Shown here: in pieces, positions 150-54,908 of the stretch
How positions within the stretch are numbered: position 1 is the first letter of the stretch
Layout of the letters: each line of letters begins with the position of its first letter
From: Desulfobacteraceae bacterium
GTDB lineage: Bacteria > Desulfobacterota > Desulfobacteria > Desulfobacterales > ETH-SRB1
Direction: 5' to 3'
Length of the DNA stretch: 55,292 bases
NCBI GenBank assembly: GCA_028571455.1
Contig: JAPVVG010000061.1
Span: 1-55,292 of the forward strand
Translations under genes and position numbers: made by a program
The notes under the pieces: model-generated
The model's database searches: none
What the model was told of the DNA's origin: nothing
The model's input: only the letters and a program-made list of their open reading frames with translations

Positions 150-215
150 GGAATTCACGAATTAAAAATCAATCAATCCCCTAATTCCTCAATCCCTCAA
201 TCCCTCAATTTTCAG
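150..215. repeat. octamer array (CCTCAATC-type) with inverted GAATT octamers
   Basis: In ctaattcctcaatccctcaatccctcaat the period is 8. Inverted ggaattcacgaatt copies lie upstream. Confidence 0.8.
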
Positions 216-278
216 TTCCTATCACTCCCCCGCCGATAACGGGACTCCGATACTGCCATAGGGGCGAAATCCCAAGTT

Positions 279-1160
279 CTATAAGTAATCAATCAGGCTC
301 AAGTTCATAACCTTGGCCGAAGAAGCAAGGGCAGCCTGGTATGCAAGCTCTTTTTGTTTCAACTCAATGATTGCTTCGGTTATATCGGCATCTTCAATAT
401 TCGAGAGCCTTTCGGTGTTGGCAATATCCATAGTTTGAAGGATATTGCCCTTAATCTCCATCCGGATCATCTTGGAACCTAAGTCGGAAATCTTGGTGGA
501 AATATGGTCAAAGTGATTATCCAGCCTGGTCATTGCATTCTGGATTCCGCTGACATTATCGTTTGTCAGCGCAGTTTTCAAATCCTCTAATGTCTTGAAA
601 ATATCATTGTCCTGTCCTGCAGTTCCAAAAACGGCCTCACCATCGCTTCCAACCTGAACCGTGCTATTTCTGCCTATGTTAATTGTAAAAGGATTGTTGT
701 CCCCATTATAAGTGCCGTCCTGATCGAATGGAGTGGTATCTGTCTTCGAACCTGCAAAGATATAACGACCGTTCAACTCGGTATTAGCCAATGAGACCAT
801 CTGATCTATAGTGTTTTGAACGGTCACCGCTGCGGAAGCCCTTCCTGCGCTCGACGTTGTGGCGGTAGCCATCTGAATGCAGAGGCTTTTGGTATCGGAA
901 ATCAGATCCTGCACATGGTTCATGGCGCTCTCTGAAGCCACAAGCCAGGTTTTGCCAAAGGCAATGTTCCGATCCATCTGTTCGATATTAGCAAGAGTAG
1001 ACTTGATGATGAGGGCCTGGTTGAGTCCCACCGGGTCGTCTGATAGATTGTTGATACGTTTTCCAGTGGAAACGACATTGCTGGCTTTATTTAATTCCTC
1101 GGTGATGTTGCCCAGGTTAAACTTAACCATCTCATAAATCGTTGTGTTGGCCACTCTCAT
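279..1160 (-). CDS. flgL: flagellar hook-filament junction protein FlgL (HAP3)
   Basis: 293 aa. It has a flagellin-like N-terminus (GKRINNLSDDPVG) and a conserved helical C-terminus, and it lies directly after flgK. Confidence 0.9.
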   Translation of the reverse strand: MRVANTTIYEMVKFNLGNITEELNKASNVVSTGKRINNLSDDPVGLNQALIIKSTLANIEQMDRNIAFGKTWLVASESAMNHVQDLISDTKSLCIQMATATTSSAGRASAAVTVQNTIDQMVSLANTELNGRYIFAGSKTDTTPFDQDGTYNGDNNPFTINIGRNSTVQVGSDGEAVFGTAGQDNDIFKTLEDLKTALTNDNVSGIQNAMTRLDNHFDHISTKISDLGSKMIRMEIKGNILQTMDIANTERLSNIEDADITEAIIELKQKELAYQAALASSAKVMNLSLIDYL

Positions 1161-1170
1161 AATAATTTTC

Positions 1171-2934
1171 CTATTTTACGCTAAGCAATGTATTCAGCAT
1201 TTCGTCGGAGATGCTGATAAGCTTGGCTGCGGCCTGAAAGGCACGCTGGAATTTGATGATATTTGTCATCTCCTCGTCAAGAGAGACAGCAGAAATACTG
1301 TCGCGAATTTCCCCGATTTTATTTGCCATCACCGCATTAAAGGCCCTGCTCCTTGAGATGCTTGAAGATTTGATTCCAATAGAACTTACCATGGAATGAT
1401 AGTAGTTGTCGATAGTCGCGGTCACGCTGCCTTCTGTGTTTCCGTCGATCCTGTCGCATGTCCACAGTGAAATATCTATGGACGTATATTGCAGGTCGGC
1501 AATAGCAAGGGCATTGGTGTTGTCTCCCGAAGCATAGTGACCGCTGGCATCTATCTGGGCGGCGGCGATGTAGTTCTTGTCAAGACTGATTTTGTTGTTT
1601 AGGTCCATGCCCCCGGCATTCGCGCCCGTGAAAAGTGTATTGATACCAAGGGCCGCAAGGACATTGCTTGTATCATCGGAAAATGCGAATGTGTATCCGG
1701 TGCCCGCGTCAATCTTGAGCTTTCCGCCTGTTATGATTGCGCTTATGTTAGCAACCCCATCTATGGTGTCCCTGAGGTCTGTGAGTTTTGTGCCGCCCGC
1801 ATTCGCGTCCACGATGATAACACTTGGCTCTCCAGTATCAAGATCTCCGTTAGAATCATAGACCCAAAGGTTAAAGGTGCCATCTGAAATTTTGTCATAG
1901 TAATTCAGGCCGGAAGCTTCAGTCCCGAGCTCCTCTCCAGCATCTGATACAGCGTATATTCCTGTAACAGCGCTAAAGGCCTCCATTCCCACACCCTGGC
2001 TGTGCTGCTGGTTGACTGTCCAGATAAATTCCTCTGCCATGGCATTGAGGTCCAGTTTATACTTTTCAATGATCTCGTCCCGCATCTCAAGCCATCCACC
2101 CATCTTTCCCCTGGTAATGTTGTTAGTGAGGTCCCCTGTAGCGACGCCGTCCTTTCCCCCCCACATAATCCTGTCTCCGTTATCTCCTCCAGAAACGAGA
2201 TTATAATTGTCGTTTCCGTGGACAAGAACGCAACCTTTGGCAGTGATTATAGTAAGAGAGCCGTTTGTCTGCTCAAAAGTCTTCACATCTATGTACTGGG
2301 CGAGTTCTGAAGTCAGCGTATTGCGCTTATCTCTTAAGTCATTAGCTATGCTTGTTGCCGCCTCCATGGCGACGAGCCGGCCATTCACCTGTGCTATCTC
2401 ATTTGTGATCTCATTGATTTGAACAATACCACCACTTAACGCCCTTGTTAAATCTGTTTGAATCTGTATTAGATCGGTGTTCAGGGTTTTCAATTGATCG
2501 GACATAAGGATGCTGTGCTCGTAGAGGGCGACCCGTTCCGTGGACCCGGAGGGGTTATTTGCAATGTCTTGCCATAAGTTCCAGAATTTTGACATCATCA
2601 TGCTGATACTTGTTTCCGAGTTTTCGTTAAACAGGCCCTCCATGACCTGCATATAATTCTCCAACTCTTGAGAAGTCGACATGTCCGATTTTCGGTCCAT
2701 GAGTTGGCTTTCTATAAATTGGTCGCTTGCTCTCAGCACCTGCGTTACATCCACCCCTCGGCCAAGGAGTAGGCCGCCGTAAGGCGCTGGTTCCCTTGCC
2801 TCGTTTACAGAGGTCTGCCTTGAATAGCCTTCTGTATTGACGTTAGCAATATTGTGGCCGGTTACATTGATGCCATATTGCTGAGCTGCCAGAGCGTCCC
2901 TGGCAATGCTTAATATCAATCCCAGTCCGGACAT
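1171..2934 (-). CDS. flgK: flagellar hook-associated protein FlgK (HAP1)
   Basis: 587 aa. The N-terminus ARDALAAQQYGINVTGHNIANVNTEGYSRQ and the C-terminus FQAAAKLISISDEMLNTLL are typical of FlgK. Confidence 0.95.
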   Translation of the reverse strand: MSGLGLILSIARDALAAQQYGINVTGHNIANVNTEGYSRQTSVNEAREPAPYGGLLLGRGVDVTQVLRASDQFIESQLMDRKSDMSTSQELENYMQVMEGLFNENSETSISMMMSKFWNLWQDIANNPSGSTERVALYEHSILMSDQLKTLNTDLIQIQTDLTRALSGGIVQINEITNEIAQVNGRLVAMEAATSIANDLRDKRNTLTSELAQYIDVKTFEQTNGSLTIITAKGCVLVHGNDNYNLVSGGDNGDRIMWGGKDGVATGDLTNNITRGKMGGWLEMRDEIIEKYKLDLNAMAEEFIWTVNQQHSQGVGMEAFSAVTGIYAVSDAGEELGTEASGLNYYDKISDGTFNLWVYDSNGDLDTGEPSVIIVDANAGGTKLTDLRDTIDGVANISAIITGGKLKIDAGTGYTFAFSDDTSNVLAALGINTLFTGANAGGMDLNNKISLDKNYIAAAQIDASGHYASGDNTNALAIADLQYTSIDISLWTCDRIDGNTEGSVTATIDNYYHSMVSSIGIKSSSISRSRAFNAVMANKIGEIRDSISAVSLDEEMTNIIKFQRAFQAAAKLISISDEMLNTLLSVK

Positions 2935-2936
2935 TA

Positions 2937-3422: not shown

Positions 3423-3441
3423 AAATAGACTCCCTTTTTAT

Positions 3442-3469
3442 TTATCGGCATGTCATGATATAAACTTGA
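3442..3469 (-). promoter_or_regulatory. sigma-28 (FliA) promoter for flgN-flgK-flgL
   Basis: The minus strand reads TCAAGTTT-atatcatgacat-GCCGATAA. The -10 element is a perfect GCCGATAA, the -35-like element is AAGTTT, and the spacer is 1 nt longer than consensus. The element ends 20 nt upstream of the flgN ATG. Confidence 0.75.
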
Positions 3470-3481
3470 TTATTTGGAATT

Positions 3482-8770: not shown

Positions 8771-8783
8771 TTCTCACCTCTTT

Positions 8784-9066
8784 GGATTGATGATTTATGA
8801 TTGTTGATTGATGATTGATGTCCCGCCTGGGCGGGATTCGCCCTGCCCGCCACCTGCCCGCAATGCCCTCGATGCGGGCGGGCTTGCTCAGACGAGGCAG
8901 GCGGGTCTATCTTTTCAATCGCCAATCATCAATCCTTGCTCTGACCTCCGACCCCGATTTTCGCGGCTGAAAGCCGCTCCCACTCAACCACTCGACCACT
9001 CGACCACTCGACCACTGGGCCTCTGACATCTGACATCTGACTTCTGACTTCTGACCTCTGACATCT
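8784..9066. repeat. composite repeat block: TGATTGA heptamers / GC hairpins / inverted CAATCAT / 9-mers CCACTCGAC x3 / CTGACYT heptamers
   Basis: This was read directly from the sequence. The outer ggattgatgatt...caatcatcaatcc arms are inverted repeats around stacked cccgcc/ggcggg hairpins. Confidence 0.9.
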
Positions 9067-9349
9067 GGGGTTCAGGGTTACCTTTCATTGAATTAAGAGA
9101 ATATACAAAGGCCAACAATTCTGCGACAATAACATAAAGGGCAGGGGGGATCTCTTCATTCAAATCAAGCTGTGATAAAACCTCTATCAGATCCGGGTCA
9201 TTGTGGATGTGTATATTATGCTCTCTTGCGATCTCGATGATCTTCTCGGCCACTTTTCCCTTTCCCATGGCTGTGACCCTGGGCGCTTTGTCTAATTCAG
9301 GCTGATACTTTAAGGCAACAGCCCTGTTTTGTCCTTTTCTTCTTTTCAT
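8984..9349 (-). CDS. stand-alone FlhB C-terminal-domain protein (YlqH/FlhB-C-like)
   Basis: 121 aa. ALKYQPELDKAPRVTAMGKGKVAEKIIEIAREHNIHIHNDPDLIEVL...IPPALYVIVAELLAFVY matches the FlhB cytoplasmic subdomain after NPTH. The last ~30 aa are translated from intergenic repeats. Confidence 0.8.
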   Translation of the reverse strand: MKRRKGQNRAVALKYQPELDKAPRVTAMGKGKVAEKIIEIAREHNIHIHNDPDLIEVLSQLDLNEEIPPALYVIVAELLAFVYSLNSMKGNPEPQMSEVRSQKSDVRCQRPSGRVVEWSSG

Positions 9350-20310: not shown

Positions 20311-20485
20311 ATTCCTCACTCCTCACTCCTCACTCCTTACTCCTTACTCCCTATTCTCTATTCCCTATTCCCTATCCTCTTTGCTGGTTCTCCGACCCCA
20401 GACCTCTGACTTCTGACTTCCGACTTCCGACCTCCGACTTCCGACTTCTGACTCCAGACCTCTGACCTCTGACCTCTGACCTCTA
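20311..20485. repeat. heptamer arrays CCTCACT/CCTTACT, CCCTATT, CTGACYT/CCGACTT between fliQ and fliP
   Basis: Three successive heptamer modules are joined by the conserved junction cctctttgctggttctccgac. Confidence 0.95.
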
Positions 20486-20493
20486 CTTATCAA

Positions 20494-23416: not shown

Positions 23417-23426
23417 TTATATCTCC

Positions 23427-25708: not shown

Positions 25709-25721
25709 AAGTCTCCTTAAA

Positions 25722-25895
25722 GGTTCAGGGTTGCTCGTTACTCGTTACTCGTTGCTCGTCATTTGTTATTGATTATTAATTCAGGGTTCAAGGTTCCGAT
25801 TTCCGGTTTTCGACTTCCGATTTCCGACTTCTGACCTCTGACTTCCGACTTCTGACCTCTGCCTGCCCGCCGTCCTTCTGGCGGGACTTCCGGGT
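25722..25895. repeat. heptamer arrays GGTTCAG, CTCGTTR, CYGAYTT plus GC hairpin in the motA leader
   Basis: This was read directly from the sequence. The block ends with cctgcccgccgtccttctggcgggac (25862-25887). Confidence 0.95.
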
Positions 25896-25934
25896 TTATC
25901 TAAACGCCTTAGATGATATTTTTAATGAATATAT

Positions 25935-25950
25935 AGCAATCTTTGTGCCA
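25935..25950 (-). promoter_or_regulatory. sigma-54 promoter upstream of motA operon
   Basis: The minus strand reads TGGCACAAAGATTGCT, a perfect -24/-12 match. It lies about 227 nt upstream of the motA ATG and just downstream of the flgE terminator. Confidence 0.75.
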
Positions 25951-28737: not shown

Positions 28738-29112
28738 CTGAACGAAAACCCCTCTTTTTGTCATTTCGACCGTAGGGAGAAATCTTTAATGCCTGTATTT
28801 TCAGTATGATAAGATTTCTCGCTTTGCTCGAAATGACAGCTTTGGTTAGTTTTCGTTCAGACACTATTTAGTATACGTTCAGAGTTCTAAGTTCTGGGTT
28901 CCCTTTATTTTGTTAACCTTTACTAACCCTGAACCGTTGAACGATTCTGTCCCCGCCAGACTGACGGCGGGCAAGCTCTGACCTCTGACCTCTGACCTCT
29001 GACCTCTGACCTCTGTCCTCTGACTTCTGACTTCCGACCTCAGACCTCTGACTTCTGACCTCAGACCTCTGCCTGCCCGCCGTCCTTCTGGCGGGACCTC
29101 CGACCTCTGTCC
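28738..29112. repeat. palindromic element (arms 28760-28785 / 28812-28837) plus hairpins and CTGACYT array between fliK and flgD
   Basis: gtcatttcgaccgtagggagaaatct pairs with agatttctcgctttgctcgaaatgac. An outer inverted repeat ctgaacgaaaac/gttttcgttcag is also present. Hairpins lie at 28952-28971 and 29072-29097. Confidence 0.92.
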
Positions 29113-31320: not shown

Positions 31321-31510
31321 CCTCCGACCTCTCTGGATTGTTGATTTATGATTGATGGAATCGCTCCTGTCTGCGTGCGGACACGCACAGGCAGGTTGCT
31401 CTATATCTTTTCAATCGACAATCATCAATCGACAATCATCAATCCTTGCTCCGACTTCTGACCTCCGACCTCTGTCCTCCGACCTCTGACTTCTGACTTC
31501 TGACTTCTGA
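31321..31510. repeat. composite block: GATTGAT-type arms, central hairpin, CAATCATCAATCGA repeats, CYGACYT array
   Basis: The architecture matches 8784-9066 (ggattgttgatttatgattgatgg...caatcatcaatccttgctccgac). Confidence 0.9.
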
Positions 31511-32530: not shown

Positions 32531-33867
32531 TGGACAATCCGATCCTCAAACAGATCCTTCAACCGGTCAACACTTTCTTTAAAGCTCACCTTCTGGTAAA
32601 TATCCTGGCGTAGAAATGAATTAATTTTCCCGATAATCTTCTTGGCAACATCTATCTCCGGATCGCTGCCATCCACATAAGCGCCTATTCTAATCAAATC
32701 CTCCGCCCCCCTGTATGTAGAAAAAACTTCAATCAACTTTTTAGCATTATTATAATGCTCGGAGTCGATAATATCTTTCATTACCCTGCTAATACTTGTC
32801 AACACATCCACTGCAGGATAGTGTCCTTTATGGGAAAGGGATCGGGACAGCACTATATGCCCGTCTGCGACAGAGCGAACACAGTCTGTTATGGGTTCAT
32901 TCATATCATCGCCTTCGACCAAAACATTATATATTCCTGTAATGCTCCCTGTTTTTTCGACTGTTCCAGCCCTTTCAAGGAGTTTTGGTATCTCGCTGAA
33001 AACACTCGGGGTATAACCTTTTGCTGAAGGCGGCTCCCCTGCAGCCAATCCTACCTCCCTTAACGACATGGCAAATCTGGTAATAGAATCCATGACCAGG
33101 ATAACATCCAGGCCTTTATCCCTGAAGTATTCTGCCAGGGTGGTGGCTACATAAGCCCCTCTTATCCTTACCAGGGGAGGGGAATCAGACGTAGCCACTA
33201 CAACAACCGATTTCTTAAGCCCTTCTTCTCCAAGGGTGTTTTCGATGAATTCTCTCACCTCCCTGCCTCGCTCCCCGATCAAGGCCATTACAATGACATC
33301 CGCGGATGTATTCCTGGCTATCATACCGATCAGAACGCTCTTCCCTACACCGGATCCTGACATTATCGCTATCCTTTGACCCTTTCCAATAGTCAGCAGC
33401 GCATTGATAGAACATATCCCGACATCTATGACATCATGTATAATCTCCCGTTTCAAAGGATTAAGAACATCTGCATAGATCGGATATTCTTTTTCTCCCC
33501 TTATTATACCTTTCCCATCAATTGGGCGGCCAAGGCCATCTACGACTCTGCCAAGGTATGCCTCTCCGACCTGAACACCAGGCTTTTTACTTATTGCAAG
33601 GATTTGGCTTCCAGGCTTTATTCCTCTCATTTCACCAAACGGCATGATAATGATACTTTTTTCGTTAAATCCTACCACTTCAGCCTGGATATTGAGGCCT
33701 TCTGAATTTTTTATTGCACAAAGGCTCCCGACACTTAGTCTCGGTCCATTCGCTTGGGCAACAATTCCTGCAACCTTTACTATCTTCCCCGCCAATGTAA
33801 CAGCCTGGCATGAGTTTGCGGCGTTGAAATATTTATCCCATTTGATTTTGTAATTGTCATTAGTCAT
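32527..33867 (-). CDS. fliI: flagellar export ATPase FliI
   Basis: 446 aa with Walker A GSGVGKS and an F1-ATPase-like core. Confidence 0.97.
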   Translation of the reverse strand: MTNDNYKIKWDKYFNAANSCQAVTLAGKIVKVAGIVAQANGPRLSVGSLCAIKNSEGLNIQAEVVGFNEKSIIIMPFGEMRGIKPGSQILAISKKPGVQVGEAYLGRVVDGLGRPIDGKGIIRGEKEYPIYADVLNPLKREIIHDVIDVGICSINALLTIGKGQRIAIMSGSGVGKSVLIGMIARNTSADVIVMALIGERGREVREFIENTLGEEGLKKSVVVVATSDSPPLVRIRGAYVATTLAEYFRDKGLDVILVMDSITRFAMSLREVGLAAGEPPSAKGYTPSVFSEIPKLLERAGTVEKTGSITGIYNVLVEGDDMNEPITDCVRSVADGHIVLSRSLSHKGHYPAVDVLTSISRVMKDIIDSEHYNNAKKLIEVFSTYRGAEDLIRIGAYVDGSDPEIDVAKKIIGKINSFLRQDIYQKVSFKESVDRLKDLFEDRIVQ

Positions 33868-33957
33868 TGGTCATTTATCATTGGTCATTGGTCATTGGTC
33901 ATTGGTCATTGGTCATTTATCATTGGTCATCTGACCTCTGACCTCTGTCATTTGTCA
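33857..33957. repeat. (TCATTGG)n heptamer array spanning the fliH stop to the fliI start
   Basis: There are about 14 heptamer units, including variants gtcatta, atcattg, gacctct and gtcattt. Both the fliI ATG and the fliH TGA lie inside units. Confidence 0.95.
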
Positions 33958-37388: not shown

Positions 37389-37420
37389 ACATTCGCTGAA
37401 TCCGACTTTTTACGAATTCA

Positions 37421-38546: not shown

Positions 38547-38567
38547 AATATTCCCCTTCACTACGTA

Positions 38568-38602
38568 GGTTCAGGGTTCAAAGGTTCAGGGTTCAGAGGT
38601 TC
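38568..38602. repeat. GGTTCAG/GGTTCAA heptamer array in the flgB leader
   Basis: The sequence is ggttcagggttcaaaggttcagggttcagaggttc. Confidence 0.9.
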
Positions 38603-38642
38603 TTTGAACATATTTCTGGATTCCCGCTTTCAGTTAATTTTA

Positions 38643-38658
38643 AGCAAATTACATGCCT
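38643..38658 (-). promoter_or_regulatory. sigma-54 promoter upstream of flgB
   Basis: The minus strand reads AGGCATGTAATTTGCT with correct GG-N10-GC spacing. It sits between the activator stop and the flgB start. Confidence 0.55.
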
Positions 38659-40027: not shown

Positions 40028-40296
40028 GGTTCAAGTCGCTTCGCTCCAGGAAAGAGAAAAGAGGTAAGAGAAAATAGGAAAGGCGCTCTATCCTCTATCC
40101 TCTTTACTCTATCCTCTTTACTCTATCCTCTTTACTCTATCCTCTTTACTCTTTGCTGGTTCTCCGACCTCTGACTTCTGACCTCTGACTTCTGACTTCT
40201 GACCTCTGACCTCTGACTTCTGACTTCTGACCTCCGACCTCTGACTTCTGACCTCTGACATCTGACTTCTGACCTCCGACCTCTGACTTCTGAGCC
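40028..40296. repeat. composite block: ggttcaagtcgcttcgctcc element, 14-mer CTATCCTCTTTACT x4, CTGACYT array (runs into TPR gene 3' end)
   Basis: This was read directly from the sequence. The junction ctttgctggttctccgac is conserved with 20381 and 42921 (reverse complement). Confidence 0.95.
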
Positions 40297-42797
40297 CTGA
40301 TTTCCCTATTAAAATTAATCTCTTCTATCCTCTCTTTAGCAAGATTACTCCAGAATGGATCGTCGAAGCTCGAGATCTGATCATAAAGCGCAAGGGAATC
40401 TTTCCTTTTATTTAACAGCCAATAGCATTGAGCAACCTTGAACTTGAGCGGAATTATATTTGCCTTATCTTTTGCCATCTCGATAGCCTGGTTAAAGATG
40501 GCAGCGGCCTCTTTGGGATAGCTGAGATTGAGATAGACGTCTCCTATCTCCTGATAAATGTAATCATGGACTGAGTCACAAGCTTCCTTTAAGCTATCTG
40601 CCTCCCTTACTGCCTCTAATGCCTTTTCATTAAAGCTGCACCTCGCCAACGCACCGGCCTTGTCCGTCAAGAGTATTGTTCTTTTGCATGGAGTTAAGGG
40701 ATATTTCAGGGCAGAAGAAAACATCTCCGCTGCCTGAACATATCTCTTTTGTGTCAAAAAAATACTACCCTTCAACCGGTATGCATATTGAGCGTATTTG
40801 TCAGACGGATAATTGTTTATCAAGAGGTTAAGTCTTGTCAGGGCGCTTTTGAGCTCTTCTTTTTCAGACAAACTCCTGCTCAAGAAAAAGAGAAGCTCAG
40901 GGGGTTTCTCTTTGTCAGGCAAAAGAGGATCAGCGATACTAAACATCTCTGTGGCCATGTTCTCAAGATTTAGATGTATGCATGCTTTTGCAATCATTAA
41001 AAAGGGTTCAGGAGAATCAATTTTTGAAAACAGTTCTTTTTCACGATCATAGATATTTATTATGTTAGCATATTTTTTTCTTTCCATATCCTTCTTAAGG
41101 ATCAATTCCATCGTGTTTTGCAAAATATATTTATACTCTTTTTTTAATGACGTCCGGGGATAACGCTTAAAGAACTTCTTTAAGGTCTCGAGGCTTTTGT
41201 TATAATCCTTTTGTTTCTGATATAAAACAGCAAGTTTGAACATGGCAAGCTGTGCCAGGGAATCTTTTTTATCTTTGCCAGAAGGATTGTTTATAATATT
41301 TTTATAAATTTCTTCGGGCTTGTCTATGTCTTTGCCTATTTTTACAGGAGACAATTCAATTATGTTTTCAACTATGCTTTCTGTCTTTAAGTTCCATTCT
41401 TCTTGTTGTTCTGCAAGCCTGATTATACTGATACGGGCGCCCTCTGTGTCTGGATAGCGTTCGCAGACCATCTGATAGATTTTTACAGCATCCTTGATCA
41501 GCCCATCATCTTGATAAGTATCTCCGATCCTGGTTAATATTAAATGGCTCATTTCTCTGTCAGGGCAGCTATTATAAAATCGAAACAGGTTTTCTCTGAC
41601 ACTGGCGTTATCTCCCAACTGGTAATAGATATCGCCAAGGCTTAGAGAAATCTCCGGGTACTGATAGATACTTTGAGGATTTGTTGTTCTAAGTTCAGAA
41701 AGAACATCAAGGGATTCATGGAAGGCATTCATTTCATAGAGGATCTTTGACATTTCTATCTTTGCTTCTGTTCTTTGGCGTATATCCGCATCTCTGGAAA
41801 CTACCTCTTTTAAAACAGACAGCGCCTTCCGCCTCCTTTTTTTCAGGTAAAAAATCTTAGCCTTCTGTATCATGGCGCTCATGGCACACAAAGCGCTTTT
41901 ATCTTTCCTCAAAATAAGGTTGTAATAGCCCATCGCCTCAGTGTAGCATTTGGTCTTGAAATACAGATTCCCAATGGCAAGCATGGCTCCCGGCACATAT
42001 ATGGATCTGGGGAATCTATTAACAGCATCCTTATAATGATTTCTAATATCGTTGAAATGAGTCGGAATAGAATCTGAATATAATTGCTCGTAAGATTTTG
42101 CCAGGAGAAAACAGGCCCTCTCTGTGTATCTGCCTGAGGGGTATATTTTGATGAAATGATTGAGCTTTTCAATTGTCCCGGACAGGTTTTGCTCCCTGTA
42201 TGCATTAAGGCCTTCCAAAAAAAGGGCTGTATCATCCTGACCGTCATCTACTTCCATTTGAGTAAGTTTTTTTTCAGGATCTTCCAGTTCTTTTTTTTCA
42301 TTGTTTATCTCGCTGTCCAGCAATGACAAATCAGAATTAAGCGCTTCCTCTTCATTCAACCCGTCAATCATTATAACTTCTTTATTTGTAATGATAACTT
42401 CTTTATTTGTAATGGCTTCTACTATTTTTTTCTGAGAGTCAAGCTTTGCAGGTATCTTGTCTGCATCTTTTTTTTCAGCCTCATTGCTGTTTTTTTCTAT
42501 CACGACTTTTTTATTTCTATCAAAGGCTACATACTTTGGCCTGTTTCTGACATACCCTGTAACTTGTTTAGTGGATATCTTGAGCCATCCTCCTATACCC
42601 CCTCTCTGGTCAAGGATAGTGACTTTTGTTCCTTTTTGAAGAATATCCACAACAGAAGAATCCCGGGAAGGCTCTTTTCTTACATTAAGATGCCAGCAAC
42701 TTACTTCTCCCTGCAACACAGCCCCATTATTGTCTACAGCCCCGGCTGAAAAAGCAGTAAACAGAAAAACAACGCTGGCAAACAGAATATATTTCAT
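40146..42797 (-). CDS. large secreted SH3b + multi-TPR protein
   Basis: 883 aa. It has a signal peptide (FSAGAVD), an SH3b-like segment (WHLNVRKEPSRDSSVVDILQKGTKVTILD..GWLKI) and many TPR-like repeats. It carries a perfect 21-nt in-frame duplication (42373-42414). The C-terminal ~50 aa are translated from heptamer repeats. Confidence 0.85.
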   Translation of the reverse strand: MKYILFASVVFLFTAFSAGAVDNNGAVLQGEVSCWHLNVRKEPSRDSSVVDILQKGTKVTILDQRGGIGGWLKISTKQVTGYVRNRPKYVAFDRNKKVVIEKNSNEAEKKDADKIPAKLDSQKKIVEAITNKEVIITNKEVIMIDGLNEEEALNSDLSLLDSEINNEKKELEDPEKKLTQMEVDDGQDDTALFLEGLNAYREQNLSGTIEKLNHFIKIYPSGRYTERACFLLAKSYEQLYSDSIPTHFNDIRNHYKDAVNRFPRSIYVPGAMLAIGNLYFKTKCYTEAMGYYNLILRKDKSALCAMSAMIQKAKIFYLKKRRRKALSVLKEVVSRDADIRQRTEAKIEMSKILYEMNAFHESLDVLSELRTTNPQSIYQYPEISLSLGDIYYQLGDNASVRENLFRFYNSCPDREMSHLILTRIGDTYQDDGLIKDAVKIYQMVCERYPDTEGARISIIRLAEQQEEWNLKTESIVENIIELSPVKIGKDIDKPEEIYKNIINNPSGKDKKDSLAQLAMFKLAVLYQKQKDYNKSLETLKKFFKRYPRTSLKKEYKYILQNTMELILKKDMERKKYANIINIYDREKELFSKIDSPEPFLMIAKACIHLNLENMATEMFSIADPLLPDKEKPPELLFFLSRSLSEKEELKSALTRLNLLINNYPSDKYAQYAYRLKGSIFLTQKRYVQAAEMFSSALKYPLTPCKRTILLTDKAGALARCSFNEKALEAVREADSLKEACDSVHDYIYQEIGDVYLNLSYPKEAAAIFNQAIEMAKDKANIIPLKFKVAQCYWLLNKRKDSLALYDQISSFDDPFWSNLAKERIEEINFNREIRAQKSEVGGQKSDVRGQKSEVGGQKSEVRGQRSEVRSQRSEVRGRRTSKE

Positions 42798-42835: not shown

Positions 42836-43070
42836 CAGAGGTCGGAGGTCGGAGATCAGCCGTCTACGCAAAGCTACGCCGAGCCAGGGAGGTCTGAGGT
42901 CTGAGGTCGGAGGTCTGAGGTCGGAGAACCAGCAAAGAGAATAGAGAATAGAGCAAAGGGAATAGGGAATGGAGAACGGGGAATGATGAATAATGGTAGG
43001 GCCGTCCTGCGTGGCGGCTAATTAAGGGAACCAGCAACCCTGAACCCTGAACCTTGAACCTTGAACCCTG
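42836..43070. repeat. composite block in reverse orientation (GAGGTCR, GAATAGR, GAACCYT heptamers)
   Basis: This is the only block whose modules are the reverse complement of the others. It contains cagccgtctacgcaaagctacgccgagccaggg, which also occurs inverted at 53938-53971. Confidence 0.9.
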
Positions 43071-45454: not shown

Positions 45455-45466
45455 AAAATATCATCC

Positions 45467-45745
45467 TCTTGCTCGTTGCTCGTTGCTCGTTGCTCGTTGC
45501 TGGTTGCTGGTTACTCGTTGCTGGTTACTGGTTCTCTGACCCCCGCCCGCCATCGCTTCGCTCAGGCGAGGCGGGCAGGTCTGACTTCTGTTCCTTTTGT
45601 TTTTCATTCGATGTTGGACGTTCGATGTTCGATGTTGGACGTTCATCTTTTGCTTGTTTCTCGTTTCTCGTTGCTGGTTTTCTGACCTCCGACCTCCGAC
45701 CTCTGCCTGCCCGCCGTCCTTCTGGCGGGACTTCTGACCTCTGGC
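45467..45745. repeat. composite block incl. CTCGTTG/CTGGTTR heptamers, 112-nt element copy 1 (45536-45647), hairpin 45706-45731
   Basis: This was read directly from the sequence. Confidence 0.95.
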
Positions 45746-45749
45746 ATCT

Positions 45750-46538: not shown

Positions 46539-46562
46539 ACTCTCATCCCTTTGCAGGCTTTA

Positions 46563-46754
46563 AGGTTCAGGGTTCAGGGTTCAGGGTTCAGGGTTACTCG
46601 TTACTGGTTGCTGGTTACTGGTTACTGGTTCTCTGACTTCTGACCTCTGACTTCTGACTTCTGACTTCTGACCTCTGACCTCTGACCTCTAATTCCTCAA
46701 TTCCTTAATTCCTCAATTCCTTAATTCCTCAATCCTCTATCCTCTTTGCTCTAT
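46563..46754. repeat. modular block GGTTCAG x4 / CTSGTTR x6 / CTGACYT x9 / AATTCCTY octamers x5 / CCTCTAT
   Basis: This was read directly from the sequence. The block lies between cheB and cheZ. Confidence 0.95.
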
Positions 46755-48277
<1,523 letters not shown>

Positions 48278-49993: not shown

Positions 49994-52233
49994 TCTGATT
50001 CTCCTGAAGATATGTCGAAAATTCCTGCAATATCAAGAATAAGGCTGATTTTACCATCCCCCATAATTGCCCCGCCGGCCACCCCTTTTATATTTTTAAG
50101 CGCTCCGCCAAGATTTTTAATAACTATCTCTTCCTTGCTAATTAATTCATCTACGAGCAGGCATCTTCTTCCCCCCTGGTTTTCCACAACTACCACCAAT
50201 CTTTGCCAGGGATGGCTGTCTATTTTATTTGACAAGGAATTTCCCTTGAGTCCAAACATCTGATCAAGCCTGACTAAAGGAAGTAAATGATCCCTGAACA
50301 TGATCATCTCCCCCTCTCCCTTTACTGTGTGGCATTCGGTCCTCTTAGGTCTAAAAGACTCCTGGATAGTCAGGGTGGGAATAACATATCTCTCGTCACA
50401 GACTTTTACAATCATTCCATCGATTATTGCCAGGGTGAGAGGCACCCGGGTATAAACCGTTGTGCCTTTACCAGGCATTGACTGCACATCAACTCTCCCC
50501 TTTAGTTTTTCAACAATCCTGTTTTTTACTACATCCATGCCTACGCCCCTGCCGGATATATCGGTTACCTTTTCCGCAGTAGAAAGGCCTGGATGAAATA
50601 TAAGGTTGTCGATCTCTACATCGGTCAATTTTTCATCTTCCTTTATCAGACCGCTGGATATGGCCTTTTTCAGGATTTGTTCCCTGTTTAAACCCTGGCC
50701 GTCATCCTCGATTTCTATTACAATATTGCCTCCCTTGTGATATGCTTTTAAATATATGGTTCCCTGTCGGGGTTTATTTGCGGCCTCCCTTTCATCCGGC
50801 AGTTCCAGGCCATGGTCTATTGAATTTCTGATCATATGGACTATGGGCTCATATATTTCTTCCACCATATTCCTGTCTATCTCTGTATCTTCACCTGACA
50901 TGACAAGCTGCGCTTCCTTGCCCGCCTTTTTTGCCAGGTCTCTTATAAGCCGCAGCATCTTTTGAAAGGTGCTCTTGATCGGCACCATCCTGAGCGACAT
51001 GACCGTTTTCTGCAATCCGGAAGTAAGCAGGTTCAACCGATTAACTATCTGATCCAGATCCCTGTCCCTGCTTGCCATGATTAACTTATTTTGTCTGAAC
51101 ATTGACTGGGCAATTGCCAGTTCTCCAACCATGTCCACTATATTATCGAGTTTGCCTGTATCCACCTTTACATGAAGAGCAACCAGCCGGCCAAATCCTT
51201 TCTGTTCCCTGAGCGCGGATACAACCTCCTTTGTTTCAACCTTTTTCTGTTCAACAAGTATCTCTCCAATTTTCTTGCCGTCCTGTTTCTTTTGGATATC
51301 AAGGACATCTTTAACATCCTGGTCAGAAACCACCCCCTTTTCAATCAGCATCTCGCCCAGGGGCTTATCACCATCCCCTTGGGCCTTTGCAAGAAAATGT
51401 TCAATCCTGACAATAATTTGTTTAGTGTCTATATCCCCTTCTAATGGAGTTCCAGTATCAAGAGAGGCCTGGACATTTTCAATCATGCTCTTCAACATAT
51501 CCACGCTTTCGAGTATAATATCTACTATTTCCCCATCTATAGAAAGCTCTTTGTTTCTGACCTTATCTAAAAGATTTTCCGATATATGGGCAAGTTTATT
51601 GATCTTATTGAAATTGAGAAAGCCGGACACCCCTTTAACCGTATGAAAAGGTCTAAATATGGCATTTATCGTTTCAAGGTCGGAAGGATCCTGTTCAAGA
51701 TCCATTAATTTAATTTCAATGGTACCTAAGTTGTCCAGAGACTCGGTCACAAAATCAATGATAATCTCTTTGTCCTCATCACCTATTATACCGGGCGTTC
51801 CTTCCAAACCCTGAACCTCTGAACCCCGCCCGCCATCGCTTCGCTCAGGCGAGGCGGGCAAGCCTTGAACCTTATAACCAAGACTCTTGAGAAGGGGGGA
51901 AATATCCTTATCAGACTCCTTCCCGTCAGCCAGATCTCTACACAGTTTCTGCAGTTCGGAGACGCCTGCCTCAAAAGGGGATAAATCAGATGTCTCATTC
52001 AAAATGACCTTTTCCAAATATCCTTTCATCCCTGATATTACAGGTATCAAAAATTTTTGATCGAGTTTCCCGGCCAAATCCTTTATGGATTCGAGAGATT
52101 TTAGAGTCTTGCCAAGACCAGGTATATCTTCCGGGTCCAGCATGACAGTATCCAGGGCAAGAGAATCAATGAGTCTGGTAATCTTTTTTAATGATTTTTT
52201 CATGATAAATAAGGTTCCGGGTTCAAAGTTCAC
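49990..52233 (-). CDS. cheA: chemotaxis histidine kinase CheA (with N-terminal extension and in-frame repeat insertion)
   Basis: 747 aa. It has an Hpt domain (FRPFHTVKGVSGFL), a dimerisation domain, an HATPase domain (DDGQGL, GRGVGMD) and a CheW-like P5 domain. The start is either the GTG at 52233 or the ATG at 52203. Confidence 0.93.
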   Translation of the reverse strand: MNFEPGTLFIMKKSLKKITRLIDSLALDTVMLDPEDIPGLGKTLKSLESIKDLAGKLDQKFLIPVISGMKGYLEKVILNETSDLSPFEAGVSELQKLCRDLADGKESDKDISPLLKSLGYKVQGLPASPERSDGGRGSEVQGLEGTPGIIGDEDKEIIIDFVTESLDNLGTIEIKLMDLEQDPSDLETINAIFRPFHTVKGVSGFLNFNKINKLAHISENLLDKVRNKELSIDGEIVDIILESVDMLKSMIENVQASLDTGTPLEGDIDTKQIIVRIEHFLAKAQGDGDKPLGEMLIEKGVVSDQDVKDVLDIQKKQDGKKIGEILVEQKKVETKEVVSALREQKGFGRLVALHVKVDTGKLDNIVDMVGELAIAQSMFRQNKLIMASRDRDLDQIVNRLNLLTSGLQKTVMSLRMVPIKSTFQKMLRLIRDLAKKAGKEAQLVMSGEDTEIDRNMVEEIYEPIVHMIRNSIDHGLELPDEREAANKPRQGTIYLKAYHKGGNIVIEIEDDGQGLNREQILKKAISSGLIKEDEKLTDVEIDNLIFHPGLSTAEKVTDISGRGVGMDVVKNRIVEKLKGRVDVQSMPGKGTTVYTRVPLTLAIIDGMIVKVCDERYVIPTLTIQESFRPKRTECHTVKGEGEMIMFRDHLLPLVRLDQMFGLKGNSLSNKIDSHPWQRLVVVVENQGGRRCLLVDELISKEEIVIKNLGGALKNIKGVAGGAIMGDGKISLILDIAGIFDISSGESE

Positions 52234-52348: not shown

Positions 52349-52371
52349 GATCGAACAAAAAAACAAACACC

Positions 52372-52757
52372 GAACCTTGATGGAATCGCTTCGTTCTATC
52401 TTTTTCCATAGACAATCATAAATCCTTGCTCCGCCCACTGCTTACTGCTTACGGCTTACTGCCCTGCGACATCTGACTTCTGAGCTCTGCCCTCTGACCC
52501 CCGCCCGCCATCGCTTCGCTCAGGCGAGGCGGGCAGGTCTGACTTCTGTTCCTTTTGTTTTTCATTCGACGTTGGACGTTCGATGTTCGATGTTGGACGT
52601 TCATCCCTTTTCCTTCTGATTTCTGGTTTCTGACCTCTGACATCTGACTTCTGATTTCTGATCTCTGACCTCTGACTTCTGATTTCTGATCTCTGACCTC
52701 TGACTTCTGACCTCTGACCTCTGACCTCCGACTTCTAATCCCTCAATTCCTAAATTC
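52372..52757. repeat. composite block incl. CTGCTTA heptamers, 112-nt element copy 2 (52494-52605), long CTGAYYT array, octamers
   Basis: This was read directly from the sequence. The block lies between cheR and cheA. Confidence 0.95.
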
Positions 52758-53594
52758 CTAAATCTTCTTATAGACACTTGGTTGAATATACTTGAAAGAA
52801 TGTTTTATGCCGGTCAAACTTTCTGCGTGACCTATCAAAAAATATCCATTATCAGCGAGGTTGTGGAAAAATTTTCCCACCAATACCTCTTTTGTCGGGT
52901 TGTCAAAATAGATCATGACATTGCGGCAAAAAATAACATCAAAAGGTTCTCCAAAATGAAATTCCTCCATGAAATTCAGCCTCTGGAAACTTATTTTTTT
53001 CTTCACCTCCTTTTTTACCCTGAAATAGCCATTCCATCTGTTGTCACCTTTCTGGAAATACCTTTTTCTTAATTCATACGGTATCTTTTCTATTTTCTTT
53101 GTCTCATAAATTCCGGCGCTCGCTCTTGACAAAACACTGGTTGAAAGATCGGTTGCCAGGATTTTAATCTGCCATTTTCCCCGATTATTAAGGGCTTCAC
53201 TAATAGTCATGGCAATACTATATGGCTCTTCTCCTGAAGAACAGCCTGCGCTCCAAATCTTTAAACAATTGTTTTTCGAAGCATTCTCTCTTTTCATTAT
53301 CTCAGGCAGGGCTTTGTTCTTTAAAAAATCAAAATGTTCAGACTCTCGAAAAAAATAGGTCAGATTGGTGGAAATAGAATCAAGAAGGAGTATTAGTTCA
53401 TGTCCGGTTTTGTCATTTACCACATGGTCGTAATACTGTCTAAAAGACCGGAAATTTCTCTGCCTGAGAATCTTTCCAAGCCTTGCCTTGAGCAACTCCT
53501 TTTTACCTCCATGCAGATTGATCCCGCACGTATCATAAACATAACGGCTAAATTTATTAAACTCGCTGTCCTTTAATACCGGTTCTTGCATCAC
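52758..53594 (-). CDS. cheR: chemotaxis methyltransferase CheR
   Basis: 278 aa with IWSAGCSSGEEPYSIAM and FCRNVMIYF. Confidence 0.93.
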   Translation of the reverse strand: MMQEPVLKDSEFNKFSRYVYDTCGINLHGGKKELLKARLGKILRQRNFRSFRQYYDHVVNDKTGHELILLLDSISTNLTYFFRESEHFDFLKNKALPEIMKRENASKNNCLKIWSAGCSSGEEPYSIAMTISEALNNRGKWQIKILATDLSTSVLSRASAGIYETKKIEKIPYELRKRYFQKGDNRWNGYFRVKKEVKKKISFQRLNFMEEFHFGEPFDVIFCRNVMIYFDNPTKEVLVGKFFHNLADNGYFLIGHAESLTGIKHSFKYIQPSVYKKI

Positions 53595-53604
53595 AACAAA
53601 CCTT

Positions 53605-54006
53605 GTTCAGGGTTCAAGTCGCTTCGCTCCAGAAAAGAGGATAGAGAATAGAGAAAATAGGAAAGGTCCTCTATCCTCAAGTCGCTTCGCTCTATCCTCT
53701 ATTCTGGTTACTCGTTGCTGGTTGCTGGTTACTGGTTGCTGGTTGCTCGTTGGCTTTGTTTGTGGGAGTGGCTTTCACAAATCATCCAATCCACGAATCC
53801 ACTAATCATCCTACTCGTTCCAGCATCCAATCATCCAATCAACGAATCAATCAATTCCCCACTCGACTACTCGACTACTCGACTACTCGACTACTGGGCC
53901 TCTGACTTCTGATCTCTGACCTCTGACCTCTGACCTCCCTGGCTCGGCGTAGCTTTGCGTAGACGGCTGACCTCTGATTTCTGATTTCTGATTTCTGATC
54001 TCTGCC
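53605..54006. repeat. composite block: ggttcaagtcgcttcgctcc element x2, CTGGTTR heptamers, CAATC-type repeats, 9-mer CTCGACTAC x4, CTGAYYT arrays (runs into pilZ gene 3' end)
   Basis: This was read directly from the sequence. Confidence 0.95.
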
Positions 54007-54550
54007 TTTTAAATACACGGGAGATAATTTTTTCCCTTTCATTTATATCAAGATCGAGGAATTTTATGCCAAGCAGGTAAACGTTCTTGCCGTCCTCATT
54101 TACAGGCTCTGTACGGACAACTTCACCAAACACATCAATAAATATGAAAGGAAACGTTGATAGAACAAGGTTTATCTGAATAATCCGTCCATGTTCAACA
54201 GGACTATCCACCGTCATTTTCATCCCGGCGCCTCCGATATCTACTCCAACCCCCTGATTAAAAAGCACAATATCCGGCTCATCTTTGGATAACACGGTGA
54301 GTATGCGGTCCAGTTTCTCATCCATATGAAACAGAAAATCCACAAGACATTGATTTCCTGTAATATCATTAGACCTGTTATCGGTATCAACGCCGTCAAA
54401 TATTAGTCCTTTGTTATCTGAAAACAGAATTTGGTCGCGGGTTTCCTTAATTTCTTCGTATTCCTTCTGGGTGATAACCCTGAATTTAACTTTAAAGGAC
54501 AAATTTGCCCTCACAAAAGAACGCTTCTCCTTTGGCTCTATGTCAACCAC
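53891..54550 (-). CDS. PilZ-domain protein (putative c-di-GMP receptor)
   Basis: 219 aa with a GTG start and AGGAGG 5 nt upstream. KRSFVRANLSF is RxxxR-like, and VGVDIGGAGMKM is D-x-S/G-x-x-G-like. The last ~38 aa are translated from repeats. Confidence 0.7.
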   Translation of the reverse strand: MVDIEPKEKRSFVRANLSFKVKFRVITQKEYEEIKETRDQILFSDNKGLIFDGVDTDNRSNDITGNQCLVDFLFHMDEKLDRILTVLSKDEPDIVLFNQGVGVDIGGAGMKMTVDSPVEHGRIIQINLVLSTFPFIFIDVFGEVVRTEPVNEDGKNVYLLGIKFLDLDINEREKIISRVFKRQRSEIRNQKSEVSRLRKATPSQGGQRSEVRDQKSEAQ

Positions 54551-54600
54551 ACATTCCTCCTGTCAAAAAAAACCTGAAAATAAGAAATTAAAATCATTGA

Positions 54601-54616
54601 TGCAATTGTTATACCA
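54601..54616 (-). promoter_or_regulatory. sigma-54 promoter upstream of pilZ-domain gene
   Basis: The minus strand reads TGGTATAACAATTGCA, about 50 nt upstream of the GTG start. Confidence 0.6.
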
Positions 54617-54619
54617 CCA

Positions 54620-54908
54620 GGGTTCAGGGTTGCTCGTTGCTGGTTACTGGTTACTGGTTGCTGGTTCTCTGACTTCTGTCTGCCCGCCGTCCTTCTGGCG
54701 GGACCTCCGACTTCCGACTTCCGGCCTCTGTCTGCCCGCCGTCCTTCTGGCGGGACTTCCGACTTCCGACTTCCGGCCTCCGACCTCTGCCTGCCCGCCG
54801 TCCTTCTGGCGGGACCTCTGACCTCTAATCCCTCAATTCCCCGTTCTCCATTCCCTATTCCCTATTCCCTATCCTCTTTCCTCTATCCTCTTTCCTGATC
54901 CCTGATCA
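54620..54908. repeat. modular block GGTTCAG / CTSGTTR / three copies of the 26-nt GC hairpin with CCGACTT spacers / octamers / CCCTATT / CCTCTTTCCTCTAT
   Basis: Hairpin copies lie at 54679-54704, 54731-54756 and 54790-54815. Confidence 0.95.

Follow-up and report, generated by a model that had tools for sequence, protein, structure and literature searches.

How blocks of short tandem repeats came to lie between the flagellar and chemotaxis genes of a Desulfobacteraceae bacterium, and what they do there, is the question raised by a 55,292-nt metagenome contig (JAPVVG010000061.1), referred to below as the window. Its minus strand, called the sense strand throughout, carries nearly all of the genes, which encode FlhA/B/F/G, FliA, FliMNOPQR, MotAB, FliHI and CheA/B/R/Z, as well as PilZ, two sigma-54 activators and a TPR protein; csrA and fliW adjoin the cluster, as seen in other assemblies. 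The G+C content is roughly 42%. The same FlhA, residue for residue, is also encoded on contigs of several ENA and Logan samples. The nearest genome match by FlhA is an uncultured 'Desulfobacterium sp.' metagenome-assembled genome (MAG) with 75% identity, followed by Thermodesulfobacteriota or delta-proteobacterial MAGs with at most 61%. The blocks are satellite-like intergenic repeats made of about ten families of 7-8-nt units and two G+C-rich hairpin elements, and their composites are ordered 5'-to-3' relative to the flanking genes. They are real, intergenic, polar, modular and patchily distributed, and they occur in at least one phage.

The arrays are also clearly non-random. Tandem Repeats Finder (TRF), which had been suggested for the whole genome with the original prediction made from the bare sequence, returned 109 rows for the window. 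Arrays with periods of 7, 8, 14, 21 or 28 nt cover 2300 bp and those of every period 2944 bp; at scores of at least 40, the 2291 bp covered lie far above the 0-87 bp obtained in ten dinucleotide shuffles. All repeat units that the original prediction listed turned out to be genuine, and its count of at least 18 intergenic blocks compares with the about 16-18 recognised here. Its tally of about 3.5 kb (6% of the window) was somewhat high, as TRF gives 4.2-5.3%. Such arrays occupy 1738 of 6396 non-coding nucleotides (27%) versus 553 of 48896 coding nucleotides (1.1%), and the coding share comes mostly from three 3' ends of open reading frames (ORFs) that read through AGRTCAG arrays. They amount to 4.2% of the window versus at most 1.2% of the length of each of 80 FlhA loci from other genomes. 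With tandem units beyond chance (up to 19) and a non-coding excess, the blocks are intergenic heptamer simple-sequence repeats under the general definition of LSSR, i.e., head-to-tail tandem units of 5-11 nt that run longer than chance (Mrazek 2007, as summarised in PMC4679880).

Independent assemblies cover window positions 137-26827 and 46661-50601, and the arrays from 27 kb to 46.6 kb lie outside this support. Within it, the blocks at 173-209, 8785-9067, 20313-20488, 25730-25861 and 46661-46754 are identical base for base. The first of them is identical in contigs L105-L110 down to position 137, the fliP-fliQ arrays are identical in L004-L007, the motA leader shows no differences in L004, and 46661-46754 is identical in L111, which comes from an unrelated sample. 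A search of other contigs for identical cheZ, sigma-54 activator, cheR and fliF proteins gave no match; start-codon calls probably differ. The ends of other contigs from this organism often fall within arrays or next to them (for example at 137, 173, 183, 9088, 9147 and 46661), which fits many copies genome-wide; in practical terms, the arrays break short-read assemblies. These frequent contig ends, together with the disagreement of window positions 1-136 with five assemblies, might suggest assembly or sequencing artefacts. Such an origin, which the original prediction had named as the finding that would undo it, can be practically dismissed: identical arrays are present in ENA and Logan assemblies from different pipelines, and related composites are found in JGI, NCBI and IMG/VR contigs.

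The main family, A, has the sense unit AGRTCRG. Four variants make up 83 of its 113 units and differ mainly by A or G at positions 2 and 6, under a count that tolerated up to one mismatch per unit, a rule that in itself enforces part of the conservation seen elsewhere in the unit; the two commonest variants are AGGTCAG and AAGTCAG (28 of the 113). The other families, also given on the sense strand, are B (YAACSAG), C (CTGAACC), D (octamers GAGGAATT and GAGGGATT), E (AATAGGG, GATAGAG and the 14-mer AGTAAAGAGGATAG), F (AGTGAGG), G (CCAATGA), H (GATTGAT), I (GAACATC) and J (octamer GTCGAGTG). Two orders of modules recur. The first, (E)-D-A-AGAACCAG-B-C-ribosome-binding site (RBS)-ATG, is found at 46539-46754 and 54620-54896, and in part at 25730-25861. 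The second, A-GAGAACCAGCAAAGAGG-E-(F), is found at 20311-20493 and 40048-40304 and, reversed, at 42838-43070. A preferred module order had been predicted, and D-A-B-C indeed appears at 46564-46754 and 54620-54896 and partially at 25730-25861, 45469-45749 and 52437-52763. The predicted conserved junctions also stand, with one correction. The 18-nt core CTTTGCTGGTTCTCCGAC occupies all three expected places (20379(+), 40151(+) and 42920(-)), while the entire 21-mer has an exact copy only at 20376. The 14-nt junction ACTGGGCCTCTGAC lies at 9014 and 53893, and the 11-mer TCGCTTCGCTC occurs seven times in the window.

The G+C-rich type-1 hairpin CCCGCCAGAAGGACGGCGGG is present six times in a single orientation, inserted each time at AGGT^CAG of an A unit. 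The type-2 hairpin carries GAGCGAAGCGA and is present three times, once in frame within cheA. Units of the H and I families also form inverted pairs around hairpins; A arrays are direct and unpaired. Higher-order periods of 14, 16, 21, 28 and 52 nt detected by TRF suggest unequal exchange or slippage of multi-unit blocks.

The polarity of the main family is pronounced: 113 A units in 14 runs are in mRNA sense, versus 8 units in 2 runs in the opposite orientation, both within one block (42838-42926). The predicted co-orientation of CTGACYT arrays with transcription therefore holds with the exception of this block. The sense strand of the arrays is 64% purine (38% G and 15% C) and is rich in Shine-Dalgarno (SD)-like GAGG and AGGA: SD-like 4-mers number 5.75 per 100 nt, whereas coding sense has 1.92 and the antisense strand of the arrays 0.58. 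In an RNA-folding analysis with mononucleotide shuffles, blocks built purely of arrays proved less stably folded than the window background: the fold energy of the fliP-fliQ block was -23.7 versus a window background of -36.6±9.8, and that of the TPR tail array -27.6 versus -50.2±7.9. A arrays are free of stop codons on the sense strand, and their complement is C-rich with TGA every 7 nt, in agreement with the earlier observation that AGGTCAG is open in three frames and has TGA in all antisense frames. Families B, C, D, E and G carry stops, and in the B and C modules C exceeds G on the sense strand.

The arrays are closely fitted to the genes. They fill the fliP-fliQ, fliH-fliI and cheB-cheZ gaps from the stop codon to the RBS, and the last F unit supplies the SD sequence of fliQ. 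The fliP-fliQ gap measures 183 nt here, versus about 24 nt in the syntenic nearest relative L010 and about 10-15 nt in L012/L013; L010 has no A-type run and almost no arrays, which indicates that the arrays are lineage-specific insertions into a normally compact operon. Three ORFs, encoding an FlhB-C-like protein, the TPR protein and PilZ, gain RSEVRGQ-type tails via A arrays. The stop codon of cheB is where E and D arrays begin. Antisense (GGGTTCA)n stops 14-25 nt 5' of the cheZ and motA starts, and C arrays finish 10-30 nt before start codons in the window as well as in L090, L096, L097, L098, L099 and L119. Sigma-54-type promoters lie 5' of arrays at 25950-25935 and 38658-38643, placing these arrays in predicted leaders, and 3' of composites at 42825-42810 and 54616-54601. 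Other matches of this type are found at 7974-7959 on the minus strand and 55060-55075 on the plus strand. Sigma-70 promoter-like matches are at shuffle level, except for a mild excess in the 40-55 kb region (41 vs 27.9±5.9).

We propose, giving the idea an even chance of being correct, that the blocks are satellite-like repeats carried in mRNAs as weakly structured, purine-rich, SD-like spacers whose polarity is set by selection on the transcript. Arrays would grow and shrink through slippage or unequal exchange, and would spread between sites and genomes by array recombination, by insertion of hairpins into A units at AGGT^CAG and probably by phages. They would be part of the transcripts in the fliPQ, fliHI and cheB-cheZ spacers and in the predicted sigma-54 leaders, and their polarity may reflect what an mRNA tolerates or uses. 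In the preferred order, purine-rich GGG/GAGG units (AATAGGG, GAGGAATT) stand behind a stop codon and are followed by (AGRTCRG)n, AGAACCAG, (YAACSAG)n, (CTGAACC)n, the RBS and the start codon. An upstream ORF running into a stop-free A array would merely gain a tail, with stops in all frames awaiting it just before the next RBS. The opposite strand, which is C-rich and G-poor, has TGA in every frame and is faced by the only terminator-like hairpins of the blocks, would be hostile. The likely effect is a generic one: the arrays would act as spacers, offer ribosomes a standby site or an RBS, tolerate read-through and block antisense expression, and would not be a motility-specific regulatory code. 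The locus is an unusually rich natural experiment, as about ten families, conserved in order and polarity, have entered essential operons that are normally compact. If the polarity does reflect a role of the RNA in spacing, reinitiation or insulation, this would be a general and testable rule for how operons are built in a large group of sediment bacteria, and would account for the similar position rules in Xanthomonas, Nostoc and Beggiatoaceae.

The strand asymmetry also invites a different interpretation, which we consider quite improbable, namely that the composites are direction-dependent insulators. In the sense direction they would let transcript and ribosomes pass; in antisense or when reversed they would stop both by UGA codons, a rut-like tract for Rho and hairpin-plus-U terminators. 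The periodic TGA of the A complement and the G-rich, C-poor composition of sense arrays agree with this. All seven terminator-like sites within repeat blocks face antisense and none faces sense, with antisense-facing stems of 14-15 pairs at 45607-45645 and 52573-52603; the sole strong sense-strand intrinsic terminator in the window lies at 26213-26186. The reversed composite follows the stop codon of a sigma-54 activator gene and precedes the sigma-54 promoter (42825-42810) that belongs to the next gene; on the gene-sense strand, its part at 42838-42992 would yield an RNA of 155 nt that is 39% C and 15% G. This is, however, the only reversed composite, the C excess of B and C modules lies on the sense strand, the overall number of terminator-like sites equals the shuffle expectation, and the dependence on Rho is purely conjectural.

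The turnover of the arrays can be judged from the available strains. Array length is unchanged in 4-7 independent assemblies over five blocks, including L004, which is 2.5% different in adjacent genes, and no copy-number change occurs among strains 99.7-100% identical; these are consensus contigs, which do not show minority length variants. The length changes between the window and L004 are all coding and in frame, comprising a 9-nt CATCTAATT unit, a 12-nt fliL insertion and a 6-nt deletion. The sites of L004 differences are 11782, 23271-23275 and 24644-24651; the 15-nt repeat of fliL (23369-23418) shows substitutions only. In L093, which is orthologous to 52897-55112 and has a cheR 96.8% identical, the arrays are thoroughly remodelled. 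Hairpins and E/D modules are missing upstream of PilZ, and the PilZ-cheR gap holds other families; promoter 54616-54601 and the A-B-C order are kept. L096 and L098 have different families at one same site. The blocks thus keep their form in strains that are nearly identical and change freely between relatives that share about 96% identity.

These comparisons make it very unlikely that the arrays are phase-variable contingency repeats switching or tuning flagellar or chemotaxis expression by copy number. Short tandem repeats in promoters, leaders and gene ends are a classic substrate for such switching, heptamers are not multiples of three, and the arrays of the window and L093 differ strongly. 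Nevertheless, the 4-7 assemblies show no difference in copy number at the consensus level, where minority variants are hidden, and strain differences sit in the in-frame coding indels of 6, 9 and 12 nt. A change in the length of A arrays, open in all frames, would not switch ORFs off, and in relatives arrays flank housekeeping genes.

The arrays extend well beyond the window. A metagenome scan with the 20-mer A-to-B junction GTCRGAGAACCAGYAACSAG, an approach suggested with the original prediction, gave 15 matches, eight of which are true composites at seven distinct loci; the other seven are due to chance. Each true composite stops short of a start codon, or in the case of L093 of the conserved promoter, by between a few and about 30 nt. 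In L090/L094 (FlhA about 63% identical) A-B-C lies upstream of flhB, and in L099 (FliF about 47% identical) the composite follows fliE. In L096, L097, L098 and L101, which share 87-93% amino acid identity among themselves, arrays are found beside tgt, queA and gatB and beside aminotransferase, methylmalonyl-CoA epimerase and mutase genes. At least three lineages besides that of the window carry the composite (AGRTCRG)n-AGAACCAG-(YAACSAG)n-(CTGAACC)n-RBS-ATG, whereas the nearest of the genomes compared (FlhA 75% identical) is without it. The original description of a system woven through a motility regulon is not supported, since elsewhere the composite precedes tgt, queA, gatB and methylmalonyl-CoA genes. 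The system is not motility-specific, and the arrays are a genome-wide kind of intergenic repeat. In the delta-proteobacterial MAG contig L013, the 600-nt gap before flhA carries (CAGGGTT)8.6 followed by (GAACCCC)2.7 at 9424-9574, and this inverted pair of C-family arrays could form a long hairpin.

Orientation outside the window is informative as well. In L098 a divergent gene pair has arrays on either side, and most of them are sense-up on the strand of the genes next to them, with one exception. Outside the species of the window, B, C and D point the same way as the A array closest to them in all 14 cases and I and J are mixed; some of these loci were chosen through the A-B junction, a choice of which the C and D orientations and L119 are independent. 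A search of public data for the peptide encoded by A arrays returned 169 small ORFs labelled as Desulfobacterales, Desulfobulbaceae, Moorena, Blastocatellia, Verrucomicrobia and Bacteroidota MAGs. Two of them, examined as DNA, proved to be perfect (AAGTCAG)15-18 arrays, the 18-copy array being in a Moorena genome. The arrays thus yield spurious 'RSEVRGQ' ORFs in public protein sets.

In IMG/VR, 29 viral contigs have A arrays of at least 4.7 units, many together with several heptamer families; 20 viral matches to a junction 17-mer, none with arrays, are due to chance. One of them, L119 (IMGVR_UViG_3300035698_020833), is a genuine phage, whose genes for terminase, portal, head morphogenesis and capsid share one strand. 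Its three A arrays and its D array all run in the direction of these genes, as does one of its two I arrays. A close form of the composite lies in this head operon: 3' of the capsid stop the phage reads (AGGTCGG)4 - TTGAACT CTGAACC - AAGGAGG - ATG. L115 (IMGVR_UViG_3300048999_000098; 41% G+C) carries a phage capsid gene with A arrays on the same strand, and its GTCATTG arrays run opposite to the G family of the window. The repeat arrays of the two contigs, with families that include AGRTCRG, GAGGGATT, GAACATC and GTCATTG, lie between head genes or at their ends.

A more far-reaching formulation, which we regard as doubtful, is that the ordered composite represents a previously unrecognised class of polar cis-elements, shared by several Desulfobacterota-like lineages and at least one phage. 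It would be a linker that couples or insulates cistrons and is perhaps read by a factor, and phages would carry it because the expression machinery of the host depends on it. Sense transcription and translation would pass through such a linker and ribosomes would be handed to the next start, while antisense or reversed read-through would be killed by all-frame stops, rut-like C-rich RNA and antisense-facing terminators.

Several observations weigh against the proposal that the arrays are transcript spacers shaped by selection on mRNA. In the window, co-orientation with transcription is confounded with replication strand, because nearly all genes are on one strand, and only a single reversed composite is available. 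Transcription of the arrays is deduced solely from operon context and predicted promoters. The composites at 54620-54896 (gene-sense) and 42838-43070 (reversed) lie upstream of the next gene's sigma-54 promoter, so a role at the mRNA level cannot explain every placement. Among the 29 viral contigs, 14 cases were co-oriented and 16 opposite by a crude longest-ORF rule, which shadow ORFs mislead at 55-69% G+C. Finally, the retention of junctions and order at 63% FlhA identity and the presence of arrays in compact phage genomes point to selection more specific than passive tolerance, for which a dedicated binding factor is one possibility.

Such factors were envisaged for a related group of bacteria. 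In Geobacter metallireducens, a 'delta-proteobacterial' relative, Aklujkar et al. 2009 (PMC2700814) annotated multicopy intergenic repeats of classes 1-3 as putative binding sites of global regulators. Class 3 consists of five MTYCTGA units and class 1 of four GTTGCTYN units; the number of units is fixed at 3-5, inverted pairs stand 80-110 bp apart, some sites separate genes of a single pathway (proB-proA), and IHF/HU were proposed as putative binders. The class-3 units (CTGACTT, CTGACTC, CTGAATT) correspond to the A-unit complement: CTTCTGA, which fits MTYCTGA, is a complement-strand rotation of AAGTCAG and a rotation of the CTGACTT unit in the original prediction, and CCTCTGA is one position off. 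GTTGCTYN resembles the complement of B (GGTTGCT). Unlike the Geobacter elements, A arrays of the window comprise 3-19 units, are direct and gene-co-oriented, and are joined head to tail with other families; inverted pairs are formed only by the GATTGAT and GAACATC families.

By analogy, the arrays might be multimeric sites for one or more dedicated trans-acting factors, such as an RNA-binding protein that recognises motifs with a 7-nt periodicity in leader or spacer RNA, or a nucleoid-associated or IHF/HU-like DNA binder, and form a global regulatory layer. We consider this unlikely. The near-identity to the sites annotated in G. metallireducens (PMC2700814) speaks for it, as does the proposal of S1, Csp or CsrA-type binders for TAACTGA repeats (PMC4679880). 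So do the predominance of four variants among the A units (under the one-mismatch rule), the junctions and module order shared by at least four lineages and, in part, by a phage, the location of arrays on both sides of sigma-54 promoters, and csrA and fliW next to the cluster. On the other hand, orthologous arrays are wholly changed between relatives 96-97% identical, which a site-specific regulon would hardly tolerate, copy numbers span 3 to 19, the paired inverted layout is not seen for A arrays, and no candidate for the factor emerged. The core motif of CsrA, GGA, shows an enrichment of just 1.4-1.7x and is absent from the two commonest units. A CsrA sponge was rejected on the same grounds (3.4 GGA per 100 nt in sense arrays vs 2.4 in coding sense; none in AGGTCAG or AAGTCAG), and an Rfam scan of the whole window at E≤0.1 gave no match.

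To our knowledge, heptamers are the commonest long simple repeats in bacteria, and none has an established function. Closest in placement are the GGGAATC and GGGGA(C/T)T heptamers of Xanthomonas and Nostoc (Rehm et al. 2015, PMC4692102), which occur genome-wide, are intergenic and favour gaps between co-directional ORFs. Their G-rich strand is the coding strand up to 50 bp after stops or the non-coding strand up to 50 bp before starts. They are mostly transcribed, differ in length or sequence at the same sites in close relatives, show no link to surface genes, and their function is not known (PMC4692102). Similarly, E (GGGAATA) and D units follow stops and antisense (GGGTTCA)n precedes starts in the window; the position rule holds for E/D at cheB and for C at cheZ and motA, and the D array at 173-209 falls outside the 50-bp limit. 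In contrast to the single family of Xanthomonas and Nostoc, with its preference for four units and G-quadruplex potential, the window, from a different phylum, has about ten families in order. Its nearest unit to GGGNATC is GGGAATA, the A family lacks a G-tract, and only one G-quadruplex-type motif exists in 55 kb (46570-46593), so the G-quadruplex idea was discarded.

TAACTGA direct repeats have been described in marine Beggiatoaceae, cyanobacteria and Bacteroidetes (MacGregor 2015, PMC4679880). They lie in forward orientation directly before start codons, including those of ribosomal-protein operons, in 2-6 copies with stops in every frame; their patchy spread across phyla suggests horizontal transfer, and a translational role was proposed (PMC4679880). 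The C arrays of the window resemble them in being forward and shortly before start codons. TAACTGA is a single family with stops, whereas the main family of the window is stop-free and SD-like and is followed by other families. TAACTGA itself has no tandem copy in the window and a single copy per strand, which excludes membership.

Cyanobacterial short tandemly repeated repetitive (STRR) heptamers, reportedly described by Mazel et al. in 1990 with the units CCCCAGT, TTGGTCA and CAACAGT, likewise form several intergenic tandem families. The G unit TCATTGG/GTCATTG is a rotation of TTGGTCA, which we take to be the STRR2 unit; CCCCAGT and CAACAGT are not found in the window. STRR sequences are known from heterocystous cyanobacteria, whereas the lineage of the window is Desulfobacterota-like, with best FlhA matches all in Desulfobacterota-type MAGs, and we know of no description of STRR families as ordered composites with conserved junctions. 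In enterobacteria, REP/BIME elements are extragenic mosaics of small palindromes, located in operons and at gene ends, transcribed and present in many copies. The two palindromic hairpin families (six and three copies) at fixed points of the window arrays are reminiscent of them. BIMEs, however, alternate inverted palindromic units, while the window has long direct heptamer arrays with type-1 hairpins all in one orientation, and no RAYT-type transposase gene was seen within it.

The novelty claimed in the original prediction has to be narrowed accordingly, as intergenic heptamers with strand or position rules are on record (PMC4692102, PMC4679880, PMC2700814). No description of the ordered multi-family composite, its conserved junctions or its presence in phage was found in a literature coverage that was incomplete, so that this is absence of evidence only. 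Searches for the literal repeat sequences, for Desulfobacteraceae tandem repeats and for the contig accession brought up nothing relevant. The individual blocks are listed in Table 1.

Table 1. Repeat blocks of the window and the genes or signals next to them (families A-J as in the text)
Position	Strand	Composition	Setting and source
173..209	-	D octamer array, sense GATTGAGG/GAGGGATT, 4.6 copies	3' of flgL stop (279) by ~70 nt; TRF
8771..8983	-	Palindromic composite: GATTGAT-type array, G+C-rich hairpins, inverted ATCAATC array	Upstream of ORF 8300-8770
8980..9067	-	J octamer array (GTCGAGTG) and A array (AGRTCAG, 6.6 copies)	C-terminal tail of FlhB-C-like ORF 8984-9349
20311..20493	-	Arrays throughout: A (13 units), GAGAACCAGCAAAGAGG, E (AATAGGG), F (AGTGAGG)	fliP-fliQ spacer
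25709..25950	-	Sigma-54 promoter TGGCACAAAGATTGCT (25950-25935), hairpin CCCGCCAGAAGGACGGCGGG, A array 25794-25861, C-like units, B array 25730-25759, RBS	Predicted motA 5' leader
28976..29095	-	A array, 13.7 units, type-1 hairpin embedded	TRF
31336..31510	-	A array 31449-31510, then GATTGAT/hairpin/ATCAATC palindromic composite	TRF
33856..33947	-	A units, then G array (sense ATGACCA/CCAATGA, 10.7 copies) into fliI start codon	fliH-fliI spacer
38567..38658	-	Sigma-54-like promoter 38658-38643, then C array (CTGAACC, ~4.8 copies)	Predicted leader, ORF 38142-38561
40048..40304	-	A array 40162-40304 (19 units), junction, 14-mer E array AGTAAAGAGGATAG x4.3 (100% matches), inverted E-like segment	A array forms TPR protein tail
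42838..43070	+	Sole reversed composite: A, junction, E, B, C read on +	
45455..45749	-	Mosaic: A, type-1 hairpin, A, B, I array (GAACATC), type-2 hairpin (GAGCGAAGCGA), B	
46539..46754	-	Canonical composite: E, D (GAGGAATT), A, AGAACCAG, B, C, RBS, ATG	cheB-cheZ spacer
51807..51880	+ (reversed)	Type-2 hairpin CCCGCCTCGCCTGAGCGAAGCGATGGCGGGCGGGG with CTGAACC-like flanks	In frame in cheA linker; cheA ORF 49990-52233
52437..52763	-	D, A (17.7 units), I, type-2 hairpin, A, TAAGCAG array	cheR-cheA intergenic, 3' of cheR stop
53631..54004	-	Two A arrays, J, GATTGGAT array, B, inverted E segments with GAGCGAAGCGA	PilZ-cheR block; A arrays form PilZ tail
54601..54896	-	E, D, A, B, C, then sigma-54-type promoter TGGTATAACAATTGCA (54616-54601)	

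Some blocks have features of their own. The palindromic composite at 8771..8983, which includes a TRF array at 8785-8820, folds strongly (minimum free energy -88.6, z -5.3). The hairpin at 51807-51880 is translated as the linker KVQGLPASPERSDGGRGSEVQGLEG ahead of the Hpt domain of CheA. The A array within 52437..52763 has a 28-nt higher-order period, and the A module of 54601..54896 contains three type-1 hairpins and a 52-nt higher-order repeat.

At its left tip (positions 1-136), the window differs from all the other assemblies, which run straight from the D array (173-209) into csrA and fliW. Either the tip of the contig was misjoined, or the strain has undergone a rearrangement at a repeat. 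In flgK (ORF 1171-2934), five independent assemblies (L105-L108 and others) have about 309 additional bases at 1537-1549, giving an FlgK of 686 aa instead of 587 aa in the window, which is either a real in-frame deletion in the window or a collapsed repeat.

Coding repeats of other kinds comprise a 33-nt unit repeated 3.9 times with 97% identity at 29830-29958, which gives an 11-residue protein repeat (ORF 29118-30848, 576 aa), and a perfect 21-nt unit in two copies (ATAACTTCTTTATTTGTAATG) at 42373-42414 within the TPR gene. Additional interspersed elements are located at 37320-37400, 28817-28845 and 55029-55050. One pair of inverted GTCATTTCGAGCGAAGCGAGAAATC-type arms lies 3' of fliE, and a hairpin, GTTGGGTTTCGCTCAACCCAAC, is kept in L093; the arms and this hairpin are similar to repeats from which spurious small ORFs are called in numerous environmental genomes. 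A near-consensus sigma-28 promoter (TCAAG-N15-GCCGATAA) is found at 3442-3469 on the minus strand, upstream of the FlgN-family ORF 2937-3422.

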